Shown here: positions 10,521 through 36,924 of the stretch, one piece after another
Numbering within the stretch: position 1 is the stretch's first letter
Layout of the letters: each line of letters starts with the position of its first letter
Assembly (NCBI GenBank): GCA_000004695.1
Contig: CM000150.2
Span: 3,744,001-3,808,000 of the forward strand
Source: Dictyostelium discoideum
Taxonomy: Eukaryota
Length of the DNA: 64,000 nucleotides
Reading direction: 5' to 3'
The notes under the pieces: generated by a model
The model's database searches: none
The model's input: only the letters and a program-made list of their open reading frames with translations
Told to the model about the DNA's origin: nothing
Position numbers and translations under genes: made by a program

Positions 10521-11147
10521 AAAAAAAAAAAAAATAATAAAAAATAAAAAAAATTAAATAAAATAAAAAAAAAATATAATTTTAAAATCTCTAACCTTTA
10601 CTCTTTACTTTGGGTTTTCAAAAAAATGTATATGGGTGTGAAGTTCGAATAGTTTTAATTCTTTATTTAATCAATATCTTAAATTAATTTAAGGTACATA
10701 ATTAAAATAAATTTAATAAATAATAAATAATTATTTAACTTTAATTATTTTTTTTATTTACTACTATTTTTTATTTTAATTTTATTATTATTATTCTTTT
10801 TATTTGATCGAGTCCGATGATTCAATTAATTATCTTGATTCTTCACATGTTAATCCTTTTGTTAGACTAAGATCATATACATTTGAGAAATTGCCATTTA
10901 AATAAACTTGACCACCAGTTACTATAAATTTAAAGTTTTACAATATATACCAATTGCAATATCATTACAAATACAATTACCAACGTGATCATTACATTTA
11001 TCAAATGGTGAATATTCGACTGAACAAGGAGCTCTATAATAAAATTCAATATATTAATGTTGCACCATTTCCATCTTATAATTTAATTTGTTGATTACCT
11101 TAACCTGCACCTATTGTACATATGATTTGTGGTTTATTACTTGAGTG

Positions 11148-11243
11148 ACAATCAGTGGTGGTGATGTTATAATGTCTTGTGATTTTAATATTATAAATAT
11201 TTGAAAAATCACAAGACATTATAACATCACCACCACTGATTGT
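11148..11243. repeat. perfect inverted repeat: 39-bp stem (11148-11186 / 11205-11243) with an 18-nt loop
   Basis: Arm acaatcagtggtggtgatgttataatgtcttgtgatttt and its exact reverse complement aaaatcacaagacattataacatcaccaccactgattgt, verified base by base. Confidence 0.9.
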
Positions 11244-11249
11244 TGGTAT

Positions 11250-11830
11250 TGATACTGATGATATTTGCATTTAATTGTTGATGTTGTTATGTTGATGTGT
11301 ATAATAATGTTGTTAATGTTGTTGATGTATATTTATTTTATTTGGTGAGGTTGTAGTATGTTGATGTTGTTGGCGTTGTTGATGTTGTTGATGTTGTTGA
11401 TGTTGTTGATGTTGTTGATTTTGTTGATGTTGTTGATGTTGTTGGTGTTGTGGATTTTGTTGATTTTGTTGATGTTGTTGATTTTGTTGATGTTGTTGGT
11501 GTTGTTGATGTTGTTGATGTAATATATATATTGGTTATTATTTTATTTTATTTTATTTTATTGTTGTTGATGTTGTTGATGTTGTATATATATATTGGTT
11601 ATTATTTTATTTTATTTTATTTTATTTTATTTTATTTTATTTTATTTTATTTTATTTTATTTTATTTTATTTTATTTTATTTTGGTGTTGTTGATGTTGA
11701 TGTTGTTGATGTTGTATATATATATATATTGGTTATTATTTTATTTTATTTTATATTATTTTATTTTATTTTATTTTATTTTATTTTATTTTATTTTATT
11801 TTATTTTATTATATATATTACTATTATTTT
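11250..11830. repeat. compound satellite: (GTTGAT/GTTGTT)n minisatellite (about 11250-11520, 11680-11710) interleaved with (ATTTT)n blocks (11531-11660, 11736-11812)
   Basis: Direct reading. ORFs 11450..11836 and 11595..11849 are translation artefacts of these repeats. Confidence 0.9.
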
Positions 11831-12465
11831 ATTTAATTTTTTTATTTAATTTACATTTTGTACTATATAAAATGAGTTGACATAATATTCTAAAAGAGAA
11901 TACTAATTTTGTAAAAATTTATTTATATTAATTATTGAATATCCTATTATTTATTTATATTATATTTATTATTACTATGAAGAATTGAGTAACTAATTTT
12001 GGAAGAACCTCTTGGTCATTTATCCTCACCCTCGTTATTAATAATTTTTTTTTTTATAATTTTTTTTTTTATTATTTTCTTTTTTTTTTTTTTTTTGTAA
12101 TTGACCAATTTCCGAACCCATATTGAAATAAAATATAATCAAAAAAATAAAAAAATAAAAAAAATGTGCAAAGTGATTTATTATTTTAATTTAAAAAATA
12201 AAATAAAATAAAATAAAAATAATTAAACAAAAAATAAAAATGAATAATAAAAAATATTACATACATTCTGGTTTTTATTTTTTTGCAAAGTCGCAAACAA
12301 TATTTATATTTTCTTACCAAAAGTTAAAATAAATAAATTTATTAAACTAAGATTAAATATTCTTTATTTTTTAAATACATTAAAAAAAAATAAAAAAATT
12401 GTAATGTTTTTATAGTTTTTTTTATTAATGTTTTTTTTTTATTTTTATTTTTTAAACAAAACTTG

Positions 12466-17759: not shown

Positions 17760-18760
17760 TCAACATTTTCATCTATCTTTGGTTATTTTCAAAATAATAA
17801 AAATAATAATAATAATAATAATAATAAATTAATATTAGTATACCAAATACCAAAAAGTACAAAGAATATACTTTTAGATAATAATGGTAGACAAGCATTC
17901 ACCATAAAATATTTTTTTCAATTTCTATAAATATATTGGTGATGTATATGATAGAGAAAACACAATCATAAGTCATTTATTAATTTTCATTCACAAATCA
18001 ATTTCTGGTGTTCATGAACCTATCAATGGTAACCATTTATATATTTTAATAATTGCTTTTTTATTTATAATTTAATTTTGCAGACGATTACGTTGTAGTT
18101 GGTGGCGTCCATGCCGAGTATGCAATAAGGGTAATTCTTTCAATTCTTGGCATTGAATTTGATGAAATTAAGAACAATCATCAAATGAAAATTATTAGAA
18201 CTAAATTTCAAAAAAATAATGGTTCAATTAAAATAATTATTTTTTATTTTACCAATCATCCCTCAGACACACACAGGGATCCAATAGTTGATATTATTAA
18301 ATTTATATTATTGGTAGAATACTTTAATAATAATAATTGCAATAATAATAATATTATTATAAAATTAGATCAATCACTGTTGAAATCATTTATCAAAAAT
18401 TATCAAATTTTGTTCAAAAACCAAGTAGTGGTTGTGTGATGATTTAATAAATCATATTAATTTTACTGATAATGATGAATGCAATCATAGTTTCGTATAT
18501 TCACCAATCATCAATTTTAACATTTTCGAATCAATTTTAAAACCAACAGATTCAAAAATAACAAGTATTGATGATTCAACTTCCAGTGATTACCAATTTT
18601 AAAAAATGGAATTTTTAAAATTTCATTCAATAATATTATAACTTCAATTAAAACAACTTCAAGCAAATCACCGTCAACTAAATGGAATAACAAAGCAATC
18701 AAATATCACCCAAATAATGAAACAAAGCTTGCTACCAATGCTATATCTAGCATTTGAATA
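17760..18760 (+). pseudogene. copy 2 of the repeated gene-like unit; disabled by a 1-bp insertion (ctataaatat vs tacaaatat) and a degenerate 3' part
   Basis: Shares the upstream block ...ttcaacattttcatc..., the core DDYVVVGGVHAEYAIRVILSILGIEFDEIKNNHQMKIIRTKFQKNNGSIKIIIFYF... and a decayed downstream part with copy 3 (23870-24998). The frame breaks relative to copy 3. Confidence 0.5.
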
Positions 18761-19158
18761 TTTAGCAACTTTTATTTCGCCATTTTGGTCTGTCGAAAGA
18801 TCTTTCGACAAATTAAAAGGGCAAAACAAAAGTTATCAACTATTCAAAGAATAGACATAGTATCGATGCAAATTTAACTTTAGTTGATCTTGTCAAATTA
18901 AATTAAATAATAAATAAAATAAAATAATTTGTTATTATTATAATTAAAAAAAAAAATAAAATATATTAAAATTTAATCAAATTATACCTTAATAATAAAA
19001 AAATAAAAAAAAAAAAAAGTCTACGAAATGTATTAAATCTACATAAAACCAATCGAGTATTGATTTGTAATAATATTTTTTTTTATTATATATATATAAT
19101 AGAGAATTTTCAAATATTGATATCTCTTTGTGATTTTTTTTTTTTTTTTAATAATAAT

Positions 19159-21064
19159 TTAAGTGAATTGATTTTCATTATTAAAAACATGAAGTTGTGG
19201 TTGTTGTTGAGGAGATGATTGGGCTTGTGGATTTTCATTATTAAAAACATGTTGTTGATGTTGTTGTTGTTGTTGTTGTTGTAAATGAACCTGTTGTTGT
19301 TGATGTTGATTTTGTTGAATTTGAATTTGGAATTGTTGCATTTGAATTAATTGATTCAATTGAGCCAACATAATTGATTGATTATCCTCAAGTGATTTAA
19401 TTTTAAGTTGTAAAGATTCAATGATTTTAATACTACTATTATCATTGTCATCACTTTTTGTTATCGTTGTAACATCACAATTGGATAGAGTTGATTTAAT
19501 CTCTTCAATGATTGAACTTTGTTGTGATGGTTGACTATCTTGACATTGAGATTGAATTGCTCTACGTTCTCTTCTCATTCTACTTAAAGTTTTAGCATAT
19601 TCGATATATTTCACACAAAACAATGCTTCCTTACTATTAAACATTGATCTATTTTGTGATATACTCATACTAGATTGCCATCTCCATCTTCTCCAAACCA
19701 ATTGAATTAATCTAGCTGCTGAATCTCTTTCTTTCTTTTGTGCTTCAACTAATGATACTAAATTTAATATTGGTCTTTGATGACTCGTTGCTTGAGTTAA
19801 TCTTGCAAAACTTTCAATTACAAATGATAATAATAATAAACCAAAAATACATGCAACCTAAATAAATATTATATATAAAAAATATATATATATATATATA
19901 TTAGTAATGATTTCTTTAAAATTTTAAATAATAAATATTTAAAAATGAATATTTACAATTGCAGCAAATCTACCACCAAAAGTTTGTGGATTATATTCAT
20001 CATAGGTATCAGTTGGCCAACCAGTGATCATAGAGAGAAAAGAGATATAGACAGAAACAGCAAAAGTGAATAGTTCATTTCTCTCCCTTTCAAAGACATA
20101 CATCCATTGACCAGTAACAGCCAATGTGAAAATTGTGAATGTTAAATAAGTGAGAATTGGTGCTATTGAAATGATATATTTTAAACTTAGTGTCCAATTG
20201 AATTTTGGAGCTACATCACGTAACAACTGCTTTTGAATATGGAATCTAAGTTTATAAACTGGACTGAAATCACGAAGAATTCTACAAAATAAATATAATC
20301 TTAACCACATTAATAAACCCCATTTGGAATCTTTATACCATGCATTCTCACCAGATACAAATGGTAATGGTTGTAATGAACAAACTAATATTTCACACCA
20401 AAATAATGGACCTAATTTAGTTGATTTTAAAACATTTACTCTTGTAACCCTAAATCCTCTTGCTCTCTTTGTTAACCAATCATGTGTTACCTCTGATAAT
20501 AATAATAAATAATAATCAACTAACTGAGTACCTAAAAAAAATAAAAAAAAAAATAAAAAAGTTAAAAAACAAATATTAACATAAATAAATACAAAAAAAA
20601 AAATACATACATAAAATTAAATTTAAAATGAATATGATTGCTCTTAATATTTTTGTTGATTTATTAATTTCCAATGAATGATTTTCAACACTCCATGATA
20701 ATTGTAATTCTGTGCACATTAACGAAACACCAATCATGCCATTAATCATAATGAGTACATATCTATGTCTAAGGATTCTATCTGTATTTTCTGATCTTAT
20801 TTCACTAAAATCATTTTTTTGGAAAAATACCAAAGGTTGTGAAAAGAAGAGAAAAAAGAGGAGAGAAAAAAAAAAAAAAAAAAAAAAAAAGCATTATGTT
20901 AATATTAAATCTTTTTTTTTTTTTTTTTTTTTTTTTTCCCAGTTCGAAAAATTGTTCTCTTACCTATATTTGTCAATATTACTTAATGATTTTTCTAAAA
21001 TTGGTAATTCTGATTCAGAATCTTTTAACCTTTGCAGATTGATAAGTGCTTTTCTTCTTGACAT
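19159..21064 (-). CDS. small-conductance Ca-activated K channel (SK/KCNN)-like 6-TM protein with a non-canonical pore (FLSMITGWPTD in place of FLSIGYGDMVP), a C-terminal IQ-like motif and a Gln-rich tail; exons 21064..20964, 20804..20611, 20531..19957, 19857..19159
   Basis: Exon 1 MSRRKALINLQRLKDSESELPILEKSLSNIDKY then GTAAGA. S1 YVLIMINGMIGVSLMCTELQLSWS (compare SK [22 protein letters not shown]), EILVCSLQPLPFVSGE (SK EMLVCAIHPIPGE) and S4-like LMWLRLYLFCRIL (SK FLRLYLIARV). All three junction phases verified. The ORF track M residues at 20833 and 20310 are TTG/internal starts, not the true start. Confidence 0.55.
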
Positions 21065-22206
21065 TATAAATTATAAAAAAAAAAATAGCCTTGACACTAC
21101 TACCCCCAATGTAACGAAATAATAATTATATGGTGTGGTTGCTATAGTAATAATATATAGTTATAATAACTTGATTTGTTGCTTCTTTTTTTTTTTTTTT
21201 TTTTTTTTGATTTCTTATGTAATTATTAGATTGTTGCGTATATAAATAAAAATATATATATATAAATGTTTGTGTGTGTGTGTGTGGTATGAAAGTGTTC
21301 TATTTAAATTTATTTTTTATTTTTTATGTGTATGGTGTGTATGATGAATTATTTGTTTTTTTATTTATTTATTTTTATTTGTTTGTTTGTTTATTTTGTT
21401 TATTTACTGTGTCTTTAATAAAATGTAATCCTATTAAAAAAACAAGATGTTAAATATAAAAATACCCATACATAGTGGTAGTAGTGTAAGAAAATAAAGA
21501 AAGAGAAGAAAAAGGAGATAAAATTGTTGAAATACTATATATAATTATATAGTTATATATAGCAAAAATAAATAAAATAATAAAAAAAAAGGTTAAGCGA
21601 ATAATAAAAAAAAAAAAAAAAAATTAAAAAAAAAAAAAAAATTAAAAAAAAAAAAAAAAATTATTTTTAAAATTTGACCGATAACACTCTATTTCTAGGA
21701 GTGTAAAAAAAATAAAAAAAAATAAAAAAAAATAAAAAAAATAAAAAAAATAAAAAAAAAATAAAAAAAAGGTTATTTTCTGTGATAAAATAAAAAAAGA
21801 AAAATAAAAAATAAAAAAAATAAAAAATAAAAAATAAAAAAAAAATCAATTATGTTAAAAATTTGTTTCAAAGAAATAAAAGGATAATGATTAATGGTAT
21901 TGTTAATTAATTCCTACCTATCTGTGTCAATACATATATTCATCATATACAAATCAGTTAATAAATAAATTTATTATAAATTTGTTTTATAAATACACAA
22001 TGACGTAAATTATAATATGAATAAAATAAAATAATAAATAATTTAAAAAAAAAAAAAAAAAAAAACATTCACTATAAAAGTAAGATAAAAAATAAAATTA
22101 TTTATTTATAAAATAATATAAAAAGTAATAATAAAAGAAATAAAATAATAATAATAAAAATAATAATTGAAAAAATAAAAATAAAAAAAATAAAAATTAA
22201 ATAATA

Positions 22207-22797
22207 ATGGATCAGCCACAACAACAACAACAAAATCAAGTTATAGATAATCAAGGTAGTAGTAATAATAATAGTAGTAGTAATAATAATAATAATAATG
22301 GTGGAATTAAGCATAAAAAAAGATTTCAAGTTGAAAATGCAATAATGGGAATGATATTTTTTGGATTATCAATATTTTTAATAATTTATGGTATAGTTCA
22401 AATTGCAGTTGCAAGTGGTAAAGATGATATTTCATCACGTCATACATGGGCATTTACAGTTAATGGTATTTTCTGTTTAATTACTGGTTTTCATGGATTC
22501 TTTTTATTATTCCATAAAAGAGGTAGTGCAAAACATCATGTATTGTTAAATATTATATTGGTAGCTCAAGCATTCATTCTATTTATCATTTATTCAGCAT
22601 TGGTTCACCGTTATATCAATAGAGATTGTGGTGGTGAATTTTATCAAAATCCATATTGCGTTCACGATCATAAAGTTTATATAGGAATTTCATTGGCTAT
22701 ATTTTGGGCTGTCAATATCTTTACTTTACCATTCTCTTTAATTTGCTCAATTATTCATTTGAGAAATCAAAATCATCATAATGTTGAAAATGTTTAA
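22207..22797 (+). CDS. hypothetical small 4-TM membrane protein with a Gln/Asn-rich N-terminus
   Basis: A single 196-aa ORF with four hydrophobic segments (MIFFGLSIFLIIYGIV; FCLITGFHGFFLLF; LNIILVAQAFILFIIYSALV; IGISLAIFWAVNIFTLPFSLICSII). Confidence 0.5.
   Translation: MDQPQQQQQNQVIDNQGSSNNNSSSNNNNNNGGIKHKKRFQVENAIMGMIFFGLSIFLIIYGIVQIAVASGKDDISSRHTWAFTVNGIFCLITGFHGFFLLFHKRGSAKHHVLLNIILVAQAFILFIIYSALVHRYINRDCGGEFYQNPYCVHDHKVYIGISLAIFWAVNIFTLPFSLICSIIHLRNQNHHNVENV

Positions 22798-34202: not shown

Positions 34203-36924
<2,722 letters not shown>

Follow-up and report, generated by a model that had tools for sequence, protein, structure and literature searches.

A Dictyostelium discoideum channel homologue of the SK lineage with a conserved, acidic pore motif in place of the GYG filter

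Which ions would pass a channel of the small-conductance Ca2+-activated K+ (SK or KCNN) family if its pore lacks the glycine-tyrosine-glycine (GYG) filter? This question is raised by a gene within a stretch of 64,000 nucleotides of Dictyostelium discoideum DNA (NCBI GenBank assembly GCA_000004695.1, contig CM000150.2, positions 3,744,001 to 3,808,000 of the forward strand). We refer to the whole stretch, which is very AT-rich (GC ~20%), as the window; all positions are counted from its first letter. An earlier note, made from the sequence alone, had described a four-exon gene on the minus strand at 19159-21064, whose product resembles SK channels along S1-S6, has no GYG in its filter and has its calmodulin-binding region replaced by a basic IQ-like motif and a Q-rich tail. 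The gene, DDB_G0269864, indeed encodes a protein with SK-type sequence and predicted fold; its pore loop carries an acidic motif that is conserved throughout a separate clade of proteins, while the helices that bind calmodulin in SK channels have recognizable counterparts.

The interval proposed for the gene runs exactly from the stop codon to the ATG, and the four exons join in frame to a coding sequence of 1569 nt with an intact open frame. The three introns (159, 79 and 99 nt) are each bounded by GT..AG and have a GC content of 6-20%, compared to 25-31% in the exons. All peptides quoted earlier (YVLIMINGMIGVSLMCTELQLSWS, EILVCSLQPLPFVSGE, LMWLRLYLFCRIL, VFERERNE, FLSMITGWPTDTYDEY, AARLIQLVWRRWRW and the Q-rich tail) were recovered in the spliced product. 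The gene and its exons are:

19159..21064, minus strand: whole coding gene, ATG at 21064 to stop at 19159, 522 amino acids (aa); DDB_G0269864 / Q55CX3
20964..21064, minus strand: exon 1, aa 1-34, phase 2, with the conserved N-terminus MSRRKALINL; absent from the AX4 model
20611..20804, minus strand: exon 2, with a pre-S1 helix, S1 (NGMIGVSLMCTELQLSW) and the first part of S2
19957..20531, minus strand: exon 3, with the remaining S2, S3, S4, the two-helix S4-S5 linker, S5, the turret, the pore helix, the filter loop and the start of S6
19159..19857, minus strand: exon 4, with the remaining S6, helices HA and HB, the C-terminal long helix and the Q-rich tail

The 522-aa product is identical at every residue to KAM9940940.1, an independently annotated D. 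discoideum 'hypothetical protein', whose 90% cluster includes the AX4 reference model (DDB_G0269864 / XP_646358 / UniProt Q55CX3, named 'Potassium channel domain-containing protein'). The gene is, hence, already annotated but uncharacterised. The AX4 model, 466 aa long, begins within S1, at MIGVSL, and so lacks 56 N-terminal residues that are encoded by exon 1 and the beginning of exon 2 (window 20611-21064), among them the conserved MSRRK.LINL start. Because the exon 1-encoded N-terminus (MSRRK..LINL) is kept in the orthologues of other dictyostelids, Physarum and Vermistella, the four-exon, 522-aa model is, judged by this conservation, better than the AX4 model, and newer strain annotations also favour the longer version. 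A different exon structure with a GYG pore, which would have spoken against the earlier description, did not emerge: none of the six frames of 18000-22500 contains a G[YFL]G tripeptide, which argues against a hidden exon with a GYG pore, and neither such an exon nor a paralogue was detected in the window.

The similarity of the product to SK channels is far above chance. When phmmer was run against all PDB chains, the best 12 matches were all SK2 or SK4 (top E-value 8.3e-9, aa 52-351), and the best alignment was a single one without large gaps. A profile of 13 orthologues (A2) matched the SK2/SK4 chains of the PDB at 6.6e-22 to 7.5e-17 over profile positions 16-360, with KCNQ following as the next family at 4e-6. 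Compared by hhalign to an SK set consisting of frog SK2, Drosophila SK and two protist SK-like proteins, the same profile gave an alignment of 322 columns that extends from pre-S1 to HB (probability 99.7%, E 6.4e-27). A profile of 40 clade members matched frog SK2 and Drosophila SK, both of which carry the Pfam domains SK_channel, Ion_trans_2 and CaMBD, at ~1e-33. Ten of these 40 members match Pfam SK_channel at E <= 0.01 (best 2.1e-9), and several orthologues have a precomputed PF03530 match. A Foldseek search with the first AlphaFold2 (AF2) model returned SK2/SK4-calmodulin complexes as all of the best 20 matches, and the predicted fold is that of SK/IK channels, with an S4-S5 linker of two helices as well as HA and HB. 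The C-linker and C-terminal cyclic-nucleotide-binding domain by which CNG/HCN channels are recognized are lacking in the 522-aa product. The SK homology across S1-S6 was, thus, recovered by phmmer, profile, hhalign and Foldseek alike, and the DDB_G0269864 protein almost certainly belongs to the SK/IK (KCNN) family.

The pore is the part in which the protein departs from this family. Its elements are located as follows:

19981..20064, minus strand: pore helix (aa 255-268) and 14-residue filter loop (aa 269-282, GWPTDTYDEYNPQT)
19996..20025, minus strand: pore signature T268-G-W-P-T-D-T-Y-D-E277, which replaces T-[VI]-G-Y-G-D and carries a 4-residue insertion

In hidden Markov model (HMM) and profile alignments, the pore helix FAVSVYISFLSMIT (aa 255-268) fell on SK FLGAMWLISITFLS, and every such alignment placed T272-D-T-Y-D-E277 on T/S-[VI]-G-Y-G-D. 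Between the two, all profile alignments contained an insertion of four residues (G269-W-P plus one); further downstream, Y-N-P280 aligned with SK M-V-P. Where a K+ channel has the selectivity signature T-x-G-Y-G-D, this protein, hence, has T-D-T-Y-D-E: the Thr and Tyr are retained (T272, Y275), both glycines are replaced, by T and D, and the buried Val/Ile of the SK filter has become Asp (D273). The previous conclusion that the protein is a divergent family member without GYG, whose filter is not that of a canonical K+ channel, was borne out, but the register on which it had been based (FLSMITGW on FLSIGYGD) has to be abandoned in favour of the one given here. With neither glycine left and four additional residues in the loop, the pore is, by its sequence, unable to form a canonical K+ filter.

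The rebuilt loop is highly conserved. Ten positions (S265, M266, T268, G269, W270, P271, T272, D273, T274 and Y275) are invariant in an alignment of 17 orthologues whose overall identity drops to 31-36% at the far end. Across 40 diverse members, just three columns of the entire protein show no variation at all: W270, D273 and the S6 glycine G296. In 58 non-redundant members, W270, D273 and an aromatic residue at position 275 each occur in 58/58, P or A at position 271 in 53/58 and D or E at position 276 in 43/58; the mean net charge of aa 272-279 in this set is -2.3.

We then asked how far this type of pore is distributed. A HMMER search with the clade profile, which covered 1.84 billion representatives exhaustively, yielded 1920 matches below 1e-3 and 98 below 1e-30. 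The 150 best matches, together with the earlier orthologues and strain variants, gave 166 proteins, which were classified by their filter: 64 have W-x-x-D-x-[YFW] with the insertion, another 74 lack the insertion and have GYG or GFG, and the filter is of some other kind in 23; five are truncated. Close orthologues are present in D. citrinum (96% identity), D. firmibasis (93%) and D. purpureum, and other dictyostelid orthologues in Tieghemostelium, Cavenderia, Acytostelium (two copies) and Heterostelium. Orthologues were also found in Physarum and several environmental contigs, as well as in the amoebozoans Sappinia, Vermistella, Gocevia, Phalansterium, Cavostelium and Balamuthia mandrillaris (KAL6070585.1). 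Assembled transcripts from Physarum, Sappinia, Vermistella, Gocevia, Cavostelium and Phalansterium contain the motif. Word-indexed searches for wider taxa added little: the profile matches were dominated by Drosophila SK isoforms, and trimmed cores gave four matches.

The Balamuthia protein, from a human-pathogenic amoeba, has the same pore type (MLTAWPADVFGIYTP), and so does Clim_evm28s44 (MLTAWPGDPFDVYDP). From its identifier, we tentatively take the latter to come from Corallochytrium limacisporum, a holozoan and unicellular relative of animals. With taxon names taken from cluster look-ups only, the 58 non-redundant members span eight amoebozoan genera or groups and apparently Corallochytrium. 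The occurrence of the same pore in Balamuthia and in the putative Corallochytrium protein hints that the pore clade is older than the split between Amoebozoa and Opisthokonta.

To exclude the pore itself from the comparison, positions 262-282 were masked in a neighbour-joining tree. All 41 sufficiently complete motif members and one near-variant (GWPADVQG) fell on one side of the midpoint root, and all 74 GYG-type sequences together with the 19 remaining sequences with other filters on the opposite side. This separation suggests a single origin of the acidic-pore clade. In about 20 SK-like proteins, environmental or from protists, GYG is missing and yet other filters are present, such as GISRVTYD, MDFDSM, HGLLDM and VGLNDM. 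As these proteins form several small groups within the GYG side of the tree, the K+ signature seems to have been lost repeatedly in the SK family. No account of the pore type of DDB_G0269864 was found in the searchable literature, which is weak evidence as most subscription journals lie outside its coverage; it seems that this deep and conserved branch of the SK family, which lacks GYG, has not been described so far.

Vice versa, the parts of the protein that correspond to the SK gating apparatus are largely kept. They are, in the order of the protein:

20269..20328, minus strand: S4, aa 167-186, KWGLLMWLRLYLFCRILRDF; aligned with SK2 LSIPMFLRLYLIARVMLLH
20164..20262, minus strand: S4-S5 linker, aa 189-221, two short helices equivalent to SK S45A/S45B
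19669-19779, minus strand: helix HA, aa 317-353; a confident long helix in the model
19678..19719, minus strand: IQ-like core A337-ARLIQLVWRRWRW350, inside helix HA and aligned with SK HA
19534..19650, minus strand: helix HB equivalent, aa 360-398, VKYIEYAKTLSRMRRERRAIQ; aligned with SK2 and a confident helix
19243..19437, minus strand: long C-terminal helix, aa 431-495, in the model; a coiled-coil candidate comparable to SK HC

Within S4, LRLYLFCRILRD aligned on SK LRLYLIARVMLL, and R176 is conserved to at least 97% in both the acidic-pore and the GYG-type clade. The S4-S5 linker holds an invariant P207-K-F-N-W211, the turret E246-R247 and the post-S6 A-R are retained, and the S6 hinge glycine G296 is present in 58/58 clade members and in 76/76 GYG-type relatives. 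The Q-rich tail that follows the long C-terminal helix is of low confidence in the model.

The calmodulin-binding region calls for a different description from the one given in the earlier note. AARLIQLVWRRW aligned with SK helix HA, and SAARLIQLVWRRWRW aligned with SK4 SAARVLQEAWMFYK and SK2 NAAANVLRETWLIYK, both belonging to HA within the CaMBD, and W345 fell on the SK Trp. VKYIEYAKTLSRMRRERRAIQ aligned with SK2 helix HB in both HMM and profile-profile comparisons. With both helices aligned, the region does not appear to have been replaced. The IQ-like motif lies within HA, and no other 11-residue window of the clade is conserved as highly as SAARLIQLVWR. GYG-type relatives also keep A337 (0.89), A338 (0.65), I341 (0.66) and Q342 (0.78). 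Because these residues are common on both sides, and because kinetoplastid KCa2/3-like proteins likewise have an IQ motif right after the last transmembrane segment, overlapping the CaMBD of KCa2.2 (PMC3283738), the most plausible view is that the IQ-like helix represents the ancestral state of the SK CaMBD. The apparent retention of the calmodulin-binding helices, rather than their replacement, also seems to be undescribed so far. The conservation pattern indicates that the rebuilt loop and the HA helix are both under strong purifying selection.

An AF2 model computed from a 40-sequence alignment reached a mean predicted local distance difference test score (pLDDT) of 83.4 and a predicted template modelling score (pTM) of 0.71. 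It shows aa 269-282 as a non-helical, extended loop of 14 residues with a pLDDT of about 83, while a shallower model (13 sequences, pLDDT 74.6) has a short helix at TDTYDEY. A 'second pore helix' in the manner of Nav or TRP channels (P1, filter TGWP, P2), as seen in the first model, was considered and dropped in view of the extended loop in the deeper one.

The closest known structures are the calmodulin complexes of SK2 (KCa2.2) and SK4/IK (KCa3.1; PDB 6cnm, 8v2g, 9o48, 9vu9). The Dictyostelium protein shares with the animal channels six transmembrane segments and a pore loop, similarity in sequence and fold from S1 to HB, an S4 with few charges (LRLYL..R), the two-helix S4-S5 linker, the turret E-R, the S6 glycine hinge, the post-S6 A-R, predicted HA and HB helices with the Trp in HA, and the C-terminal long helix. 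It differs from them in the filter (T-D-T-Y-D-E plus the GWP-plus-one insertion versus T-[VI]-G-Y-G-D), in a short S3-S4 loop and in an HA that bears the basic IQ-like motif IQLVWRRWRW and is not detected by Pfam CaMBD; overall identity is about 17-18%. Kinetoplastid KCa2/3-like channels (Prole & Marrion 2012, PMC3283738) are likewise SK/IK-type proteins of protists with a post-S6 IQ motif, and non-canonical filters in some of their paralogues were predicted to be non-selective. However, the kinetoplastid GYX filters keep G-Y-x and have no insertion, whereas the Dictyostelium clade has lost both glycines, has gained the insertion together with an invariant W and D, and forms a separate branch in the pore-masked tree.

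Taken together, we propose that DDB_G0269864 encodes a functional, probably calmodulin-regulated channel of the SK lineage that is unlikely to be K+-selective and may pass Ca2+, a chain of steps to which, as a whole, we would give about an even chance. According to this proposal, an SK/IK-lineage pore-loop channel with six transmembrane segments, presumably tetrameric, would have kept the SK gating apparatus with a weakly charged S4, the two-helix S4-S5 linker, the S6 glycine hinge, HA/HB and the C-terminal long helix. Its selectivity filter would have been rebuilt, with four residues inserted past the pore helix and both glycines of GYG exchanged, so that T-V-G-Y-G-D turned into T-D-T-Y-D-E. 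Cytosolic Ca2+ would be sensed by resident calmodulin on HA, with its IQ-like motif, and HB, and the S6 gate would then open in the manner of SK channels. The pore would be lined by the invariant Asp, four per tetramer, and usually by one or two additional acidic residues, so that cations may pass without K+ selectivity and Ca2+ may be permeant, binding or blocking. Tetramerization, calmodulin binding, Ca2+ gating and ion selectivity are the steps that we infer by analogy with known channels.

For the pore, these analogies are provided by GIRK2 weaver, CNG, NaK, CaV/CavAb and TRPV5/6 channels, on account of which a non-selective pore is expected. Both glycines of GYG are needed for K+ selectivity, and the weaver mutation of GIRK2 is G156S; the requirement for the GYG glycines was reportedly established by Heginbotham in 1994. 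In CNG/HCN channels, NaK and GIRK2 weaver, changes in the GYG region make a K+-type pore non-selective and often Ca2+-permeable or Ca2+-blocked, and these precedents include filters with an acidic residue. In CaV, CavAb, TRPV5/6 and CNG channels, it is a ring of Asp or Glu that determines the selectivity for divalent ions.

Several observations weigh against the proposed reading. A single-sequence Pfam search, suggested by the earlier note as a check, matched SK_channel (PF03530) at E 0.062 and 13.8 bits, under the cutoff of 31.8, and Ion_trans_2 likewise below threshold (E 0.098), and reported neither CaMBD nor IQ (PF00612) at E <= 10. Taken narrowly, this is the failed profile placement that the earlier note would have counted as a refutation. 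With sub-threshold matches only, this search was set aside as a family test, and it was the PDB, profile, profile-profile and structure comparisons that placed the protein in the family. Pfam CaMBD matched in only 1/40 clade members. With regard to the consensus IQxxxRGxxxR, only I341-Q-x-x-x-R346 fits, position 7 being R instead of G and position 11 being Q. In the pore, E277 itself is variable (18/58). The two AF2 runs differ at the filter loop, which makes any pore geometry tentative, and both are monomer models. The neighbour-joining tree lacks bootstrap support and was built on sequences ranked by similarity to this clade.

The protein might alternatively still be a K+-selective, Ca2+-activated channel, with the rebuilt loop acting as a non-canonical K+ filter and the label 'potassium channel' being functionally right. 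T272 or T268 together with Y275 occupy the Thr and Tyr positions of TVGYG, the remainder of the protein is SK-like, and K+ channels with unrelated filters, such as TMEM175, do exist. However, both glycines are replaced, by T/V and by D/E, the loop is lengthened by the 4-residue insertion, and an invariant Asp takes the place of the buried Val/Ile. Single Gly substitutions in GYG abolish K+ selectivity, and we know of no K+-selective P-loop channel that lacks both glycines. We therefore consider this explanation improbable. Quite unlikely, too, is a protein that does not conduct at all and serves as a calmodulin-binding membrane scaffold or sensor, or as a silent subunit that is active only in heteromers. 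A pore that no longer has the canonical filter is usually taken to be dead, and the kinetoplastid KCa2/3-like paralogues with GYR or GYS have been described as 'likely non-selective or non-functional' (PMC3283738). Yet a dead pore should drift, whereas this loop holds W270 and D273, the only invariants besides the S6 glycine; the ten pore-region positions do not vary among the orthologues, and the S6 glycine and the turret E-R are retained. With regard to a silent subunit, no GYG-type SK paralogue of Dictyostelium surfaced as a conducting partner in a word-index search, which was not exhaustive.

A gene-model artefact, that is, a mis-spliced or decayed gene with a real GYG transcript or a pseudogene, could be suspected from the differing, N-truncated AX4 annotation (466 aa). 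This explanation is effectively refuted by the intact frame, the identity of the product to an independent annotation, the position of the motif in the middle of the 575-nt exon 3, the lack of G[YFL]G in any frame around the gene, the 93-96% identity in D. citrinum and D. firmibasis and the occurrence of the motif in transcripts of six other amoebozoans.

Going beyond the non-selective, calmodulin-regulated channel that we prefer, one may tentatively, and with more doubt than belief, envisage an old class of calmodulin-gated, Ca2+-permeable non-K+ channels on the SK scaffold with the signature T-G-W-[PA]-x-D-x-[YFW]-[DE]. From the sequences recovered, this class may extend across Amoebozoa and at least one unicellular relative of animals, and may be absent from animals. 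Its Dictyostelium member could be a Ca2+-entry or Ca2+-release conductance giving rise to a Ca2+-activated Ca2+ flux.

If the proposal is correct, a textbook calmodulin-gating chassis of K+ channels would have been combined with a different, acidic pore that has been strictly conserved over a very long period, dating back at least to the radiation of Amoebozoa and perhaps to the last ancestor shared by amoebae and animals. The clade would represent a natural experiment in which a K+ pore was converted to another kind of cation pore. It would also point to a defined gene, in an organism amenable to experiments, that may underlie Ca2+-regulated fluxes of cations or of Ca2+, the molecular basis of which is only partly known in Dictyostelium. 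Accordingly, the label 'potassium channel', assigned automatically to dozens of protist proteins including that of Balamuthia mandrillaris, is probably functionally wrong.

The identifier DDB_G0269864 is mentioned once in the searchable literature, from which most subscription journals are missing: a review on Dictyostelium calmodulin lists the 'uncharacterized gene DDB_G0269864' among the proteins annotated by Gene Ontology (GO) as calmodulin-binding whose mRNA is altered by hypertonic stress (PMC7079120). A link to osmotic stress is possible from this single transcriptome listing. The neighbouring genes in the window (Ribosomal_L44, Tetraspanin and unannotated genes) give no functional clue, and no tRNA genes were found in the window.

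Three further features of the window were observed. At 11140-11245, a near-perfect long inverted repeat (gtgacaatcagtggtggtgatgttataatgtcttgtgatttt ... aaaatcacaagacattataacatcaccaccactgattgt) has arms of ~45 nt and an AT-rich loop of ~20 nt. At 11290-11800, minisatellite blocks of (GTTGAT/GTTGTT)n alternate with long (ATTTT)n runs, which explains the GC skew of +0.53 and the AT skew of -0.35 in the bin 11001-12000; on the minus strand, the minisatellite would read as CAA/CAT (Q/H) codons. On the plus strand at 35404-36924, an open reading frame of 506 aa starts with a stretch resembling the C-lobe of protein kinases (SDIFSFGCTLFEILG), followed by SKPKP/PQP repeats and the homopolymers Q22, T11 and N20. 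This reading frame, which is likely to be a single exon of a longer kinase gene, explains why the GC skew is so strongly negative at 35-37 kb.

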